Part shown: piece after piece, positions 12,457-23,196 of the stretch
How positions within the stretch are numbered: the stretch's first letter is position 1
How the letters are laid out: the number at the start of each line of letters is the position of its first letter
Origin: Escherichia phage vB_EcoP_B
Reading direction: 5' to 3' (one strand)
Sequence record: NC_047806.1
DNA: 44,018 nt
Translations under genes and position numbers: made by a program
Notes under the pieces: model-generated
Database searches by the model: none
The model's input: only the letters and a program-made list of their open reading frames with translations
Told to the model about the DNA's origin: nothing

Positions 12457-12474
12457 CTGTCTCACGTGTGAGAC
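12457..12474 (-). other. GTCTCAC..GTGAGAC palindromic hairpin element
   Basis: tgtctcacgtgtgagaca; intergenic. Confidence 0.5.
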
Positions 12475-16065: not shown

Positions 16066-16081
16066 GTCTCACATGTGAGAC
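16066..16081 (-). other. GTCTCAC..GTGAGAC palindromic hairpin element
   Basis: perfect 16-bp palindrome gtctcacatgtgagac, 5 nt upstream of promoter 16038-16060. Confidence 0.55.
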
Positions 16082-16247: not shown

Positions 16248-16263
16248 GTCTCACATGTGAGAC
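16248..16263 (-). other. GTCTCAC..GTGAGAC palindromic hairpin element
   Basis: perfect 16-bp palindrome, 3 nt upstream of promoter 16224-16244. Confidence 0.55.
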
Positions 16264-19027: not shown

Positions 19028-19912
19028 TTACTTAGTCAACTCTTCTACTGCCTCAGAGATTAAGGGCCATGCTTCATGGCCTTCACCGTAGCCTAGCTTA
19101 ACCAGTTCGCGGCGTGCCTTGTTAACTGCTGTTTTCTTCGTTGCCTCCTCAGCGCTTAAACCTAAGCGAGCATAGAAGCAGGAAGATTTGAATTGCGGCA
19201 GCATAGGCGCGGCTGCCTTCTTGCTTTCGCGTGCGCTACTTAAGGAGGCGATGCGGTCATTGGCTGCCTGTAATTGCTCAGTCAGTGCTTTAATTTGTGC
19301 CAGCAGACCAGCAATAGCGGCATTCTCAGTATTAGCCGTGTTATCCAGCGGCGCGGCCTTCGGTGCCTCCGGCTTGCTTTCCTCTCCCCATGGTGCTGAT
19401 TCGTCGGCCTCCTGCTCGCTCGCGGGTGGCACTACCTGCGGCGCTTGCATTTCCTGTGATTCTGCGGCCTCAGTCGCGTTCTCCTGCGGTTTTACTGTCT
19501 CAGCCTTAGATTGTACCGTTTCGGCCTTTATCTCTTTCTTAGGCTCAATCAAGGCGTTTACGGAGTTAGTGTCCAGCTTGCCATCTGCGGCGAGTTCTGC
19601 GGCCTTCTCCATGATTATATTTTCATCAGCGAAAGGAACAAGCGCCAGCATTACACGCATAGCCACACCTTTAAAGCGTTCGTCTCCTTTAAAGACACGG
19701 GCTACACTCATCAGCTTGTAGCATTGTGCCTTCTTGATGCCGAACTCTGATTCTACATAAGCTAAAAAGTCTTTTTGACCTTCGAAATCACCGCGTAATT
19801 CATTCAGACAAGCGCCAACTTTGATGTAAGAAGTGCCGATATTGTCTAAGTGCTGCTTGATTTCAGCGGTTGCAGCTTCACGAACAGACAGGAGGATGTT
19901 TTCAGTAGTCAT
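19028..19912 (-). CDS. early protein of unknown function (about 294 aa) with acidic low-complexity linker
   Basis: ORF track 19028..19921 (GTG start) trimmed to ATG with AAGGTG SD. Confidence 0.55.
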   Translation of the reverse strand: MTTENILLSVREAATAEIKQHLDNIGTSYIKVGACLNELRGDFEGQKDFLAYVESEFGIKKAQCYKLMSVARVFKGDERFKGVAMRVMLALVPFADENIIMEKAAELAADGKLDTNSVNALIEPKKEIKAETVQSKAETVKPQENATEAAESQEMQAPQVVPPASEQEADESAPWGEESKPEAPKAAPLDNTANTENAAIAGLLAQIKALTEQLQAANDRIASLSSARESKKAAAPMLPQFKSSCFYARLGLSAEEATKKTAVNKARRELVKLGYGEGHEAWPLISEAVEELTK

Positions 19913-19976
19913 AATAGTCACCTTATATAGTGGTAAGTAAATATCACATAGCCCACACAGGCAGGCTATAGGCTAG

Positions 19977-20204
19977 TTACTTGATGTAATGCCACGTCTC
20001 TATAAATGCATCCTTACTTAATACGCACTCCATGCCTCCCGGTGTAACATATTCTACTAAGCCACCTCTCACACGAAGGTAATTACCGCCTTCCTTTCTT
20101 AGTTTGCGTTTAGCTTTATCGAATAAAAACTCACGGTAAAGGTGATAGGAGCACCAGCTTAAGCCAATAAGAGCAAATGCCATAATGATGCTATCTAAAT
20201 CCAT
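19977..20204 (-). CDS. early small membrane protein (75 aa)
   Basis: ORF track; N-terminal hydrophobic helix IIMAFALIGLSW; AGGAG SD. Confidence 0.5.
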   Translation of the reverse strand: MDLDSIIMAFALIGLSWCSYHLYREFLFDKAKRKLRKEGGNYLRVRGGLVEYVTPGGMECVLSKDAFIETWHYIK

Positions 20205-20269
20205 AGTCTTAACTCCTAGTAAGTGAAAGTTTAATCAGGCGCTACCGTAGCAACGCCTTGTTAAGCCTT

Positions 20270-20290
20270 CTCTTATAGTGTCAGCTAAAT
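20270..20290 (-). promoter_or_regulatory. phage RNAP promoter-like sequence in early region
   Basis: ATTTAGCTGACACTATAAGAG (SP6-like TGACAC, TATAAG instead of TATAGAAG). Confidence 0.4.
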
Positions 20291-20398
20291 AGTTTGTATG
20301 TAGTACCTAGCACTTCCTCACGAATCTGCGCAAATCGTAAGGAACATTTCAGGGTTACACCGTCTGAGAAGATGAAGTTATATTGCCTTTCCATCTTA

Positions 20399-20728
20399 TT
20401 ATTCCTCTTCTCCGCCTTCATACCAAACTACATCGCTGTCATTTGGTACATCATTATAAAGAGCTTCATAGATGCGAGCTTGTAGAATCTTGGTTACATC
20501 CTTCGTATCAGGAATCAAACCAGCATCTTCAAAATCAACATCAATGCCATCAGCAGCCATCACAGTAAAAATCTCACTGTAATAAACTGGCACCATGCTA
20601 TCTACAACCTCATGCAGTGCATCAGAGTAATCATCATCTTCACGAATCTCATCGTACTTGATGCGCTCGTTGAATGCTTCAACAGTTGCAGCCAGAAGGT
20701 TGTAGTAAGCGTTAGCGTTGCGTTCCAT
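20399..20728 (-). CDS. ocr: Ocr-like antirestriction DNA-mimic protein (gp0.3-like), 109 aa
   Basis: ORF track; block ERIKYDEIREDDDYSDALHEVVDSMVPVYYSEIFTVMAADGIDVDFEDAGLIPDTKDVTKILQARIYEAL closely parallels T7 Ocr as remembered; highly acidic. Confidence 0.7.
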   Translation of the reverse strand: MERNANAYYNLLAATVEAFNERIKYDEIREDDDYSDALHEVVDSMVPVYYSEIFTVMAADGIDVDFEDAGLIPDTKDVTKILQARIYEALYNDVPNDSDVVWYEGGEEE

Positions 20729-20818
20729 GATTTAATCCTCATTAGTTAGGTTACATTATAGGACACTCAAAGAATACCCTAGGTTTAACCTATCCAGACT
20801 AAGAAGCGACTACCCATA

Positions 20819-20864
20819 TTGTTAAAGAGCGTGGCTTGTGCCTTGATAGGCTGGCTAGTGCCAG
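20819..20864 (-). promoter_or_regulatory. early-mRNA processing-site candidate (hairpin + GCTCTTTAACAAT)
   Basis: exact 13-mer shared by three early intergenic sites, each next to an inverted repeat. Confidence 0.4.
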
Positions 20865-20872
20865 CAACTATT

Positions 20873-21037
20873 TTATAAGATACTATTCACAAGTTTATCT
20901 ATTTTAGCATTAATTGCAACCACTTTACTATAAAGTTTATCGTGTTTGCTCTTATCTGTGTTAGCTTGCCAAGCGGCATAAGCAACAGCAAGTTTCTCTT
21001 GCAATGCATCATAGCGTTTACGTTGTGCGTTAGTCAT
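20873..21037 (-). CDS. early small protein (54 aa); not in ORF track
   Basis: ATG 21035-21037 with AAGGTG SD; translation MTNAQRKRYDALQEKLAVAYAAWQ... Confidence 0.4.
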   Translation of the reverse strand: MTNAQRKRYDALQEKLAVAYAAWQANTDKSKHDKLYSKVVAINAKIDKLVNSIL

Positions 21038-21082
21038 GATAGTTCACCTTTGTTAGTAAGCCTATCAAGACACAAACCAGAT

Positions 21083-21119
21083 TGTTAAAGAGCGGGATGT
21101 TTAAAGACGTCGCCGTCTT
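21083..21119 (-). promoter_or_regulatory. early-mRNA processing-site candidate (hairpin + GCTCTTTAACAAT)
   Basis: palindrome AAGACGTCGCCGTCTT adjacent to the 13-mer. Confidence 0.4.
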
Positions 21120-21126
21120 GATGCTT

Positions 21127-21155
21127 AATGTAGCCTTGTATGCCGTGGTTGTCAA
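21127..21155 (-). promoter_or_regulatory. candidate host sigma70 early promoter
   Basis: minus strand TTGACA - 17 nt - TACATT, same architecture as 21822-21850. Confidence 0.45.
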
Positions 21156-21163
21156 TAGTTAAT

Positions 21164-21388
21164 TTAGAGATTTGTCGTGATTACTTCATCGTAATCATAA
21201 TCTTCACTGCCTAGATACTCAGTAATGACTTGGTTGTCATACTCAGATACTAAGGTAACTCGGTGATATTCAGTGTCGTAATCTATCAAATAGTGATACA
21301 CATCAACACCTACGCCAGCTTGCATCATATCATCATGGAAGCGGATAGCTTCACTAGCTGATTCGAAGAAAACCTCATGCTGATACAT
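21164..21388 (-). CDS. early very acidic small protein (74 aa)
   Basis: ORF track; 17 Asp/Glu vs 2 Arg/Lys; strong SD AAGGAGG. Confidence 0.5.
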   Translation of the reverse strand: MYQHEVFFESASEAIRFHDDMMQAGVGVDVYHYLIDYDTEYHRVTLVSEYDNQVITEYLGSEDYDYDEVITTNL

Positions 21389-21530
21389 CCTCTTTAACCT
21401 CCTTTAATGTAGAACGTGCATATCTGTTAGCATCGCCGTAAGCGTTAGGCGTGTATTGCGAGGTTTCATGGCCAGCAAACCACGCATCGACTAAGAGTTG
21501 CTTTAGTTGGTCTTCAGTCAACTGAATCAT
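21375..21530 (-). CDS. early small protein (51 aa); not in ORF track
   Basis: ATG 21528-21530 with AAGGAG SD; overlaps both neighbours. Confidence 0.35.
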   Translation of the reverse strand: MIQLTEDQLKQLLVDAWFAGHETSQYTPNAYGDANRYARSTLKEVKEDVSA

Positions 21531-21699
21531 TACTTAACTCCTTCATCAAGTCACGTTTCTTGTTAACTGTATCGGTCCAACTTTCGTTCAGGAAGCGGTG
21601 ATACAGTGCCAACTCGTCATCTGTAAGTAATTCGTTGTTACGAATCATGTAGCATAACAGAGTGAAGAGAACGGACAGTTCACGGTTATTTAATGTCAT
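21514..21699 (-). CDS. first early protein (about 61 aa)
   Basis: ORF track 21514..21741 trimmed to ATG 21697-21699 with GAGGTG SD. Confidence 0.45.
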   Translation of the reverse strand: MTLNNRELSVLFTLLCYMIRNNELLTDDELALYHRFLNESWTDTVNKKRDLMKELSNDSVD

Positions 21700-21758
21700 A
21701 GTTAACACCTCATTCAATAAGTAATTAACCACGGCATACATAGGTTACACTAAGCAAA

Positions 21759-21808
21759 TTGTTAAAGAGCAAGGCAACATAAGTCACCTACCGTTTGGCT
21801 ATGTTGCC
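21759..21808 (-). promoter_or_regulatory. early-mRNA processing-site candidate (hairpin + GCTCTTTAACAAT)
   Basis: inverted repeat GGCAACAT/ATGTTGCC adjacent to the 13-mer. Confidence 0.4.
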
Positions 21809-21821
21809 TCCCGATGGCTGT

Positions 21822-21850
21822 AATGTACTACTAGCTTTTGCCTGTGTCAA
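21822..21850 (-). promoter_or_regulatory. candidate host sigma70 early promoter
   Basis: minus strand TTGACA - 17 nt - TACATT, upstream of first early gene. Confidence 0.5.
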
Positions 21851-21915
21851 CACTAAGTTTCACTAAGATAGACTATTTATGTGATACATGTCACAACTAC
21901 TAAGACAAACCTAGG

Positions 21916-22085
21916 TTGTCTAACGTGTGAGACTAAGGAAAAAAAAAAAAAAAAAAAAGCAATAGATACAGAGCTAGGATAGGCTAGATTGGCTAGGTAT
22001 TCCAAACGTGAAGGGGAGAAAAAGGAAAAAAAAAAAAAAAAAAAAGCAATAGATACAGAGCTAGGATAGGCTAGATTGGCTAGGT
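21916..22085. repeat. tandem direct repeat (two about 87-bp units) each containing an A20 tract; probable genome-terminus / terminal-repeat junction
   Basis: 62-bp exact repeat GG-A20-GCAATAGATACAGAGCTAGGATAGGCTAGATTGGCTAGGT at 21937-21998 and 22024-22085; lies between last late gene and first early gene. Confidence 0.7.
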
Positions 22086-22185
22086 TTCTGGTGTTCCTCC
22101 TACTGCATCTTATCACTATTACCTACTCTCAGCGGTCTACCGACCGCGACCTAATTGCATCTTATAGCTTTAGCTATGCAATCAC

Positions 22186-22320
22186 TAAGGTCTGGCACTA
22201 AGACTAACTAAGGTACACTACTAAGTTGATACTAAGCTAAGCACTAAGGCTTTAACTAAGGCAACCCACTAAGGCTAACCTAAGCCATCCATCAAGGAAT
22301 AACCTAAGGTACACGTGAGC
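22186..22320. repeat. dense array of CTAAG-containing short repeats (11 copies in 135 bp)
   Basis: cactaagg, cactaaga, aactaagg, ... ; further copies scattered 21845-23060. Confidence 0.7.
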
Positions 22321-22847
22321 GAGTGAACGGAGCGCAAGCGGAGTGAGGAGCAGTGAGTGAAGCGTAGCGAAACGAACAGATAGCCCACACCCTCATGCCC
22401 TGTCAAACGCTCAGGAATGGCCCTAAAACGGCCTGTGTAAGCCCTAAGCGGTTGCACTAAGGCAATCACCTTGTCCAATACTAAGGCGCGCCCTAGCGCT
22501 TCCTAGGTGTTCTCCTTGTGCAGCCACTAAGAGCAGACCTCGGCAAGCTCTAGGCCACCCGTCGAGCTTCCTGCGGCAGCAGGTTGAAGACGGACCAGCC
22601 CAGCCCAATTCCCAAGCCAACCGCAGCGCGGCCCCATATGGGGGAAATCCGGCGAGGGCGAGGGCGAGAGAGCTGACACACGCCTATATCAAAATTTTGA
22701 CTTTGGTTACTTTGTGACCACCTTTGGTCTGCCCTTTTGGTTACACTAAGATTATTCCTGCTAAGTACAGGTACACCAGCAGTGGGCCATAGATACATGC
22801 TGTGCATAAGAGGGCTAACAGTAGGTCTTTCATGTTACCTCATTTGA

Positions 22848-23003
22848 TTACACTAAGTCGAATCCATTGGGTTGCTTCAGGTAAGCCTGTACAGTTCCAC
22901 CAAGAACCTTCTGGCTAGCCAGTGCAGACTCTTCAGTGTCATGTATCTTCCTGAGTACCTTACGTTTGAATGGGCCGACTCCATAAGTATGAATCCAAAT
23001 CAT
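22848..23003 (-). CDS. small ORF (51 aa) downstream of tailspike; tentative
   Basis: ATG 23001-23003 with strong SD AAAGGAGG; stop lies in a TTACACTAAG repeat. Confidence 0.3.
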   Translation of the reverse strand: MIWIHTYGVGPFKRKVLRKIHDTEESALASQKVLGGTVQAYLKQPNGFDLV

Positions 23004-23196
23004 CAAACCTCCTTTGGGTTGCACTAAGGGCCAACCTAAGCCAGCCCTTGTGCAGACTAAGTGTTACTGCTTCGCAGACGATGCAGAGGCCTTACTCAAT
23101 ACTCTACGTTGAACATCCTTGGCAATGGCATATGCCTGCTTAGGGTCACGTCCTGATTGAATAAGCTCTTCTGTGTTCTGGAGTACAGCAGCTTGC

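Follow-up and report, generated by a model that had tools for sequence, protein, structure and literature searches.

Introduction

Nus-factor complexes assembled on boxA were until recently thought to serve mainly ribosomal RNA (rRNA) operons and lambdoid phages. In the rRNA (rrn) operons of Escherichia coli, one boxB-boxA-boxC set comes after promoter P2 and a second is located upstream of the 23S gene; leader-trailer helices of 25-40 bp have covariation support, RNase III makes the first cuts, and a tether/looping model for the rrn boxA has been published (PMC10250234, PMC4807359). Here we analyze the early region of Escherichia phage vB_EcoP_B (NC_047806.1), in which an rrn-identical boxA occurs three times, twice followed directly by one strand of a predicted long-range RNA helix, together with two predicted promoters for the host RNA polymerase (RNAP). 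The organizing principle of this region is the repeated unit of boxA and long-range helix, and we consider it fairly likely that the left ~1.1 kb of the genome, read by host RNAP, is built as a miniature rRNA operon.

Host early promoters and a boxA are already known in phage T7, whose RNase III sites are local hairpins. The single T7 boxA, identical to those described here, occupies nt 813-824 in the interval from promoter A3 to gene 0.3. Early transcription by host RNAP has altered consequences when this boxA is mutated, and it is regarded as an antitermination element (PMC3709561).

The window, that is, the whole stretch of 44,018 bp that was analyzed, is the complete, circularly permuted genome of a podovirus of the K1E/K1-5/SP6 type (Vectrevirus, Molineuxvirinae), with an early region ~95% identical to that of K1E. 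Its genes lie on the minus strand, which is the coding (sense) strand; the left genome end falls near 22,100-22,700, and the early genes run leftwards from ~21,850. All SP6-type phage promoters of the window are on the minus strand, the first past the left end being at 20290-20273, and a scan for such promoters found none upstream of 20290 in the early stretch. The stretch 21850-20399 is thus devoid of phage promoters and must be read by host RNAP.

Results

Three copies of the rrn boxA

The 13-mer GCTCTTTAACAAT has three exact copies in the window, where 0.01 would be expected, all on the sense strand and within 953 nt:

21758-21770, minus strand: boxA1, GCTCTTTAACAAT; with its flanks (TGCTCTTTAACAATTT) 16/16 identical to the rrnG boxA-spacer
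21081-21093, minus strand: boxA2, GCTCTTTAACAAT, exact copy
20818-20830, minus strand: boxA3, GCTCTTTAACAAT, preceded by CAC as in rrn; positional counterpart of the single boxA of T7

All three are 13/13 identical to the boxA and spacer of rrnG and rrnH, the rrnH leader of E. coli K-12 holding the identical 13-mer, and match both the functional boxA consensus of gamma-proteobacteria, GYTCTTTAANA (PMC5725501), and the extended rrn-type form UGCUCUUUAACAAU. The rrnG oligonucleotide from NusA binding work reads CAC-UGCUCUUUAACAAUUUA (PMC2724277, Table 1). The 13-mer is, judged by its sequence, the E. coli rrn boxA with the first bases of its spacer, and its predicted role here is that of a Nus-factor loading site. 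On the RNA, each copy is preceded by a small hairpin:

21773-21808, minus strand: hairpin 1, in a boxB-like position between the promoter 1 start and boxA1; 9-bp stem GGCAACAUA/UAUGUUGCC, -13.8 kcal/mol, z -2.5
21104-21119, minus strand: hairpin 2, AAGACG-GCGA-CGUCUU, between the promoter 2 start and boxA2; -7.0 kcal/mol, z -2.2
20850-20865, minus strand: hairpin 3, GCUGGC-ACUA-GCCAGC, in a boxB-like position for boxA3 and abutting the 3' strand of helix B (below); -12.1 kcal/mol, z -3.4

SP6 has a hairpin of different sequence at the position of hairpin 1, relatives carry other small hairpins at that of hairpin 2, and the stem of hairpin 3 is flipped or altered in K1E, PhiM1, and SP6. Hairpin and 13-mer together are an rrn-type boxB-like hairpin followed by boxA, a predicted Nus-factor antitermination signal. 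As at nutL and nutR of phage lambda, boxA on the nascent RNA would load host Nus factors onto RNAP. However, the lambda boxA, CGCTCTTA, lacks the extra U and precedes boxB, which binds N, whereas in this phage the order is that of rrn, with the hairpin ahead of boxA, the rrn consensus is complete, and no N-like factor is implied. The lambda succession of CGCTCTTA and a boxB hairpin is not found at the phage sites.

An initial annotation of the window had described a hairpin followed by a 13-mer after each of two promoter-like sites. These elements are indeed present (hairpins at 21808-21773 and 21119-21104, 13-mers at 21770-21758 and 21093-21081), but the annotation left them unidentified, and they occur three times rather than twice and are not tied to promoters as such. 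The copy that had been missed, at 20830-20818, is preceded by the hairpin at 20865-20850, and no consensus promoter scoring at least 9/12 lies within 140 nt upstream of it; by eye, a weak TAGATA-18-TATAAA can be seen inside the preceding open reading frame (ORF).

In ~50 related loci every occurrence of the boxA motif is on the sense strand, with none on the antisense strand. There is one boxA in T7-like contigs and there are two to four in SP6-like genomes, a range that includes degenerate SP6 and K1E copies. It might be argued that the 13-mer is a phage-specific signal, for example one bound by a phage protein or one that causes pausing, unrelated to Nus factors and resembling the rrn boxA by coincidence. 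This would be extremely improbable given that every copy is identical over 13/13 positions, and the first over 16/16, to the boxA and spacer of rrnG and rrnH, and given that the motif has been kept, on the sense strand only, across T7-like, SP6-like, and other lineages, with genetic support for the T7 copy.

Neither the boxA copies nor the two promoters are annotated in the RefSeq records of K1E, K1-5, SP6, and T7, and an Rfam scan of 19800-22300 (E ≤ 10) returned only chance-level matches to microRNA and small nucleolar RNA families; boxA or leader families were not among them. In K1E there is a fourth boxA, which carries a 1-nt insertion, GCTCTTTTAACAAT (2237-2250), and in SP6 a third, degenerate one, GATCTTTAACAAT (~1535-1547, behind promoter 2). 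Both occupy the position before the anti-restriction gene ocr, and each could be a sequencing error or a tolerated variant.

Predicted long-range helices adjoining boxA

Folding of the 1116-nt RNA that extends from promoter 1 to ocr revealed two long-range helices, A and B, both of which are present in the minimum-free-energy and in the centroid structure:

21727-21756, minus strand: 5' (leader) strand of helix A, beginning 2 nt after boxA1; duplex -43.8 kcal/mol, z -10.3
21150-21122, minus strand: 3' (trailer) strand of helix A, which is the promoter 2 sequence
21060-21079, minus strand: 5' strand of helix B, UGGUUUGUGUCUUGAUAGGC, beginning 2 nt after boxA2; duplex -38.7 kcal/mol, z -6.3
20832-20851, minus strand: 3' strand of helix B, GCCUAUCAAGGCACAAGCCA, ending 1 nt before boxA3

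Helix A has ~29 bp, spans ~600 nt, and encloses three small ORFs; helix B consists of 20 contiguous bp, spans ~230 nt, and encloses a single 54-aa ORF. In a search for repeats on the plus strand, helix B came out second in length among the window's inverted repeats within 1.5 kb, and helix A was missed because of a 1-nt bulge.

The association with boxA is not particular to this genome. We searched the 34 nt after each boxA against the next 1.5 kb and compared the result with 20 shuffles. In SP6-like loci every boxA but the last has a partner, with a free energy (ΔG) of -35 to -53 kcal/mol and z of -5 to -14.5, and the partner strand ends at most 27 nt from the next boxA in 21 of 23 cases. No such partner was found for the last boxA before ocr or for the single boxA of T7-like phages (z mostly -2 to +2); the values are -0.6 for the sequence after boxA3 and ~0 for T7 itself. 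The pattern of boxA and helix recurs in Proteus PM116, Lelliottia phD2B, Salmonella BP12B, Pectobacterium PhiM1, two Klebsiella phages, an Edwardsiella phage, and an Enterobacter phage. A scan of IMG/VR with the extended boxA motif gave a noisy mix of unrelated contigs and was used only to collect extra helix units.

Covariation strengthens the case for both helices. Among the 17 distinct sequences of alignment A1, 96.7% of the cells of helix A are paired and 18 of its 30 pairs have changed on both sides; for helix B (alignment A2, also 17 distinct sequences), 95.0% are paired and 9 of 20 pairs have changed on both sides. In neither case did any of 500 shuffles reach the observed values, and sliding the partner by 1-3 columns reduced pairing to 24-39% for helix A, the corresponding range for helix B being 26-41%. 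The fixed alignments contain 47 G.U cells versus 13 A.C cells. Since an A.C cell would be a wobble pair if the antisense strand were folded, the G.U excess favors the sense-strand RNA as the molecule that pairs. Duplex energy, tried as a test of which strand folds, was dropped as too weak in favor of these counts.

The closest match to this architecture is the rrn operon. Run on E. coli rrnH, the same script found promoter P2, a hairpin, GCTCTTTAACAAT, and then at once a strand pairing at -57 kcal/mol with a partner that starts 5 nt past the 3' end of 16S, with a second boxA, GCTCTTTAAAAATctgg, ahead of 23S. The phage has in common with rrn the order of promoter, hairpin, boxA, adjoining 5' helix strand, and 3' strand after the cargo, as well as the identical boxA and spacer sequence, a new boxA ahead of the next helix-bracketed cargo, and helices of comparable length (20-29 bp versus 25-40 bp). 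The two nevertheless differ in several respects. The phage cargo consists not of rRNA but of small ORFs with a Shine-Dalgarno (SD) sequence, one to three per helix here and 36-95 aa long across units; the phage helices enclose 0.2-0.8 kb, compared with 1.5-2.9 kb in rrn; 0-27 nt separate the phage trailer from the next boxA, whereas tRNA genes intervene in rrn; the phage lacks the boxC sequence; and one phage trailer strand has a sigma70 promoter embedded in it.

Two spaced predicted promoters, one inside a helix strand

According to the initial annotation, two identical TTGACA-17-TACATT sites lie in the early region, one before the first early ORF and the other between early genes. We found exactly this pattern, in this gene context (the second site lying between the 74-aa and 54-aa ORFs), at 21850-21822 and 21155-21127 of the minus strand:

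21822-21850, minus strand: promoter 1, with -35 TTGACA (21850-21845), 17-nt spacer, and -10 TACATT (21827-21822); exact pattern and alignment to T7 A1
21122-21155, minus strand: promoter 2, with -35 at 21155-21150, -10 at 21132-21127, and predicted start at ~21120; exact pattern, overlapping the helix A 3' strand

The window has 0.01 expected exact matches to the pattern, and none of 100 shuffles reached two; with one mismatch allowed, the same two sites are the only ones (0.44 expected). Both score 10/12 and are the sole sense-strand sites to do so in the early region from 22700 to 16301. They lie 695 nt apart, with boxA1 and boxA2 51 and 33 nt past the respective predicted -10.

Promoter 1 aligns with T7 A1 from the -35 element into the transcribed region, with 14/15 identities over ACAGCCATCG(G/A)GAGG. 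The annotated +1 of A1 (T7 nt 498) falls on window position 21815, where the A is the predicted start of promoter 1. This promoter is also present in SP6 and K1E, and K1E has the same spaced pair. As for promoter 2, its hexamers are kept in 16 of 17 diverse relatives with a spacer of 17-18 nt, as TTGACA (TTGACT in SP6) and a -10 of the TAnnnT type. The part of this promoter that runs from the final -35 base across spacer and -10 to about +1 is at the same time the 3' strand of helix A, so that an RNA started at promoter 2 lacks that strand.

This double use raises the question of whether promoter 2 is functional at all. Its -10, and perhaps its TTGACA, could be by-products of helix A, with all early transcripts starting at promoter 1: the helix contains the -10 and the spacer in full, a class-A variant (L036, unit 1) has the helix with no promoter match (6/12), and boxA3 functions positionally with no promoter of its own. 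We judge this quite unlikely. Although the helix includes only one of the six bases of the -35 TTGACA, this hexamer has been retained in 16 of 17 units, with a spacing of 17-18 nt. The -10 variants of helix A (TACATT, TACACT, and GATATT) keep the A at position 2 and the T at position 6, and each is matched by complementary changes in the leader strand; an unrelated helix class, in contig L152, likewise embeds TTGACA-17-TATGAT in its 3' strand. Promoter and pairing constraints thus appear to be satisfied together in the helix A trailer.

Both promoter-like sites are real and, on this sequence evidence, probably functional, and to speak of two spaced host promoters is reasonable. While comparison with relatives backs the original proposal that early transcription starts from two such promoters, the pair is not what organizes the region, which is the repeated boxA-helix unit.

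The last boxA and the T7 early region

The part of the locus that resembles T7 most closely begins at boxA3. This copy is followed by a local hairpin and then by the first gene past the boxA array:

20733-20812, minus strand: local irregular hairpin in the interval between boxA3 and ocr, with an upper 10-bp stem, an internal loop, and a lower stem; -22.9 kcal/mol, z -2.0
20399-20728, minus strand: ocr-like anti-restriction gene, 109 aa (PHROG 2568, E value 3e-51; annotated as ocr in relatives)

T7 826-924 and SP6 1548-1636 fold to the same shape as this hairpin, and the T7 region in question holds the R0.3 RNase III site. The likeness to T7 thus comprises host-RNAP early promoters, promoter 1 being homologous to A1, an identical boxA, and the succession of last boxA, local irregular hairpin, and ocr (gene 0.3 of T7). 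In contrast to T7, with its three clustered promoters (A1, A2, and A3) and one boxA, the phage studied here has three boxA copies, a pair of promoters separated by 695 nt, and gene cassettes bracketed by two long-range helices. Of a T7-type early region, with a promoter cluster, a single boxA, and local hairpins, only the unit of boxA3, hairpin, and ocr is present.

Putatively exchangeable cassettes between boxA copies

The helices enclose small genes of function-unassigned families:

21699-21514, minus strand: helix A cargo ORF 1, ~61 aa from an SD-preceded ATG (mechanical ORF start 21741)
21530-21375, minus strand: helix A cargo ORF 2, 51 aa
21388-21164, minus strand: helix A cargo ORF 3, 74 aa
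20873-21037, minus strand: helix B cargo, a single 54-aa ORF with the SD AGGTG ahead (PHROG 16783, function unassigned)

The helix A cargo (21164-21699) corresponds to PHROGs 9275, 20928, and 6403, all function-unassigned families, and K1E gp1, gp1.5, and gp2 are annotated equivalently.

In most units with the helix B frame (class B), the start codon of the cargo lies at +42 to +46 from boxA, and in the window boxA2 is ~43 nt upstream of it. Such spacing falls within the window of at most 50 nt used to find regulatory boxA sequences of the suhB type (PMC5725501), and it would suit boxA copies that act as Nus-dependent repressors of the ORFs downstream, reducing translation and inducing Rho termination as in the suhB 5' untranslated region (UTR), rather than as antiterminators. 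We regard such a role as very unlikely: the homologous T7 boxA behaves in genetic terms like an antiterminator of early transcription by host RNAP (PMC3709561), a lytic phage gains little by repressing its own first genes, and the link with long-range helices fits rrn, not suhB. What the phage does share with the suhB 5' UTR and with CRISPR array leaders is a consensus boxA ahead of non-rRNA cargo and, as predicted here, Nus recruitment (PMC5725501; PMC7665894); those loci, however, have a single boxA and are not known to have an adjoining long-range helix or reiteration, and the outcome at suhB is repression.

While the helix B frame is conserved, its cargo is not: 21 units enclose at least 13 unrelated families of small ORFs. 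A near-identical helix B cassette is present in K1E, and in SP6 the two helix types occur in the order opposite to that of the window. The T7-like IMG/VR contig L031 (40.9 kb; 620-1000) carries a near-identical version of the 54-aa cassette of the window, inserted between two boxA copies, and L012 (2802-2920), a T7-like close relative of L031, has a single boxA, no cassette, and the same downstream sequence. This indel, bounded by boxA, is sequence evidence of cassette transfer between T7-like and SP6-like lineages. The succession of boxA, 5' strand, SD and ORF, hairpin, and 3' strand behaves, as far as sequence comparison can tell, as a cassette frame that T7-like, SP6-like, and other Autographiviridae can exchange.

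This mobility invites an alternative in which the inverted repeats are primarily DNA-level module boundaries or recombination joints by which cassettes move, RNA pairing being incidental. The variety of enclosed ORF families, the boxA-bounded indel in T7-like contigs, the reversed cassette order between SP6 and the window, and the weak difference between sense and antisense duplex energies (see Discussion) are all what it would lead one to expect. Recombination joints, however, need direct rather than inverted repeats, and boxA already supplies a direct repeat; moreover, compensatory changes that keep pairing at 95-97% imply that pairing as such is under selection, there are 47 G.U versus 13 A.C cells, and the geometry is identical to that of the rrnH leader and trailer. 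On balance we think the alternative unlikely. The two ideas are also compatible, since the same frame can serve as RNA device and recombination handle at once.

Other helix classes lie directly after boxA in IMG/VR contigs unrelated to SP6 (L059:3208, L141:4531, L152:6108 and 5804, L110:4094, and L143:3364), one of these contigs being 99 kb long; it is in L152 that the helix 3' strand embeds TTGACA-17-TATGAT. To go by these sequences, the design of boxA plus helix may be widespread beyond the Autographiviridae.

Other features of the genome

Two further features of the minus strand are the 875-aa phage RNAP gene, taken from the list of ORFs, and the first promoter-like site of the SP6 type:

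18964-16337, minus strand: phage RNA polymerase gene, 875 aa
20273-20290, minus strand: first SP6-type promoter-like site, ATTTAGCTGACACTATAA, with two mismatches to the SP6 consensus, just downstream of ocr

The latter site sits in a region that host RNAP would still transcribe, and nine other minus-strand matches are spread across the genome. Upstream of promoter 1, by 75-240 nt, there is a 70-nt direct repeat (21929-21998 and 22016-22085, plus strand; 87-nt spacing), each copy of which holds a 20-nt homopolymer, A20 at 21939-21958 and 22026-22045 (T20 on the early-sense strand). Relatives have one copy of the repeat, with only T4 at the homopolymer spot (AAPEc6: ...tctattgcTTTTccttagtctc), and in K1E, K1-5, and SP6 the first 2-3.5 kb contain no homopolymer run of 10 or more. 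The repeat with its A20 runs could be a true expansion and duplication or an artifact of assembly or sequencing. There are 19 minus-strand and five plus-strand copies of the heptamer CTTAGTG in the window; 12 of the 19 cluster within the 1.3 kb that surround the genome ends (21754-23028), immediately upstream of promoter 1 and where the helix A leader strand begins, in a manner that recalls the short repeat arrays near the T7 genome ends. Finally, a perfect 16-nt palindrome, GTCTCACATGTGAGAC, has one copy at 16066-16081 and a second at 16248-16263, both downstream of the RNAP gene, and variants of it occur at 12458, 13636, and 15045 in the DNA-metabolism region; these palindromes could be terminators, an operator, or a nuclease site.

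Discussion

The features described above suggest a mechanism whose first steps (starts, hairpin and boxA, helix strands) derive from sequence, comparison, or covariation and whose later steps are proposed by analogy with rrn and T7. Transcription would start at the predicted promoters 1 (~21815, the T7 A1 homologue) and 2 (~21120). Each nascent RNA would soon carry a small hairpin and then the rrn-identical boxA, and the ~20-30 nt after boxA1 and boxA2 would be the 5' strands of long-range helices whose 3' strands emerge past the enclosed ORFs. By analogy with rrn, NusB and NusE (S10) on boxA, together with NusA, NusG, and SuhB, would yield a fast, Rho-resistant RNAP tethered to boxA. With boxA held at the RNA exit channel, the 5' strand would be ready to pair the moment the 3' strand appears, a looping model that was proposed for the 16S leader-trailer helix (PMC10250234, PMC4807359). 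The 20-29 bp duplexes would then be probable RNase III substrates, and their cleavage would split the early polycistron into discrete mRNAs. Each cut would also sever the tether to the upstream boxA, and a fresh boxA would reload the Nus complex, which would explain why a new boxA lies 0-27 nt past each 3' strand and why there are three copies. Promoter 2 would be a second entry point, its RNA beginning about where the processed read-through RNA from promoter 1 would. The last boxA would be followed by a local hairpin of the RNase III type before ocr, as in T7.

Several observations weigh against this reading. Sense and antisense duplex energies differ only weakly, 14 of 23 units favoring the sense strand by a mean of -2.4 kcal/mol, and the assignment to that strand therefore rests on the G.U excess and the direction of transcription. 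The units used for covariation were pre-selected at ΔG ≤ -33 kcal/mol, which inflates the percentages of paired cells, although not the compensatory changes, and Watson-Crick covariation would also be expected from a DNA-level inverted repeat. In the relatives PhiM1 and Entb_48 the 3' strand of the helix is not followed by a boxA, and among downstream boxA copies several are degenerate (GATCTTTAACAAT in SP6; a 1-nt insertion in K1E); the rule that each helix is followed by a reloading boxA is therefore not absolute. Inside the 5' strands (21756-21727 and 21079-21060), rrn boxC, UCUGUGUGGG, has no match at up to two mismatches, and the phage 5' strands have the GUGU core alone in common with it. 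In the rrn helix, structure is reported to count more than the boxC sequence (PMC10250234). That the helices are susceptible to RNase III is probable from their length and from the analogy with rrn and T7. Finally, work in E. coli suggests that the role of Nus factors at rrn is more to fold the RNA than to prevent termination (PMC4807359), and the phage may exploit either activity.

The phage-specific signal, the repressor role, the nonfunctional promoter 2, and the DNA-level joints considered above are each less well supported than the miniature rRNA operon because of the points against them. In the literature that could be searched, we found no description of reiterated boxA, of helices that bracket ORFs, of a promoter in a trailer strand, or of cassette mobility. 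Nor did we find anything relevant there on boxA, RNase III, or early promoters in SP6-like phages, although the genome papers of SP6, K1-5, and K1E may contain an earlier mention of the promoters or boxA.

More generally, we propose tentatively, as a possibility that goes further than the reading of this one locus, that in SP6-like phages, and sporadically in T7-like and other Autographiviridae, early genes read by host RNAP are carried in exchangeable cassettes that mimic an rRNA operon, combining Nus loading, a tethered leader that snaps onto a trailer past one small ORF or a short block of ORFs, mRNA release by RNase III, and re-arming by the next boxA, with one trailer doubling as a sigma70 promoter. 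If true, protein-coding genes would be served by the antitermination and processing machinery of rrn in a modular way that has not been described before. To our knowledge, boxA tethering as a promoter of long-range helix formation has been tested on rRNA only. If phages reuse the full rrn design, they would offer compact, non-essential, and easily mutated substrates for the looping/chaperone model, for Nus reloading after RNase III cleavage, and for a promoter inside a structured RNA strand.

For the phages themselves, the arrangement suggests how early transcription by host RNAP is made both fast and Rho-proof in lytic podoviruses; it is this transcription that drives genome entry in T7. If the proposal is true, the cassettes would be a vehicle for the horizontal spread of host-takeover genes, which would explain the shuffling of early anti-host genes between T7-like and SP6-like lineages.

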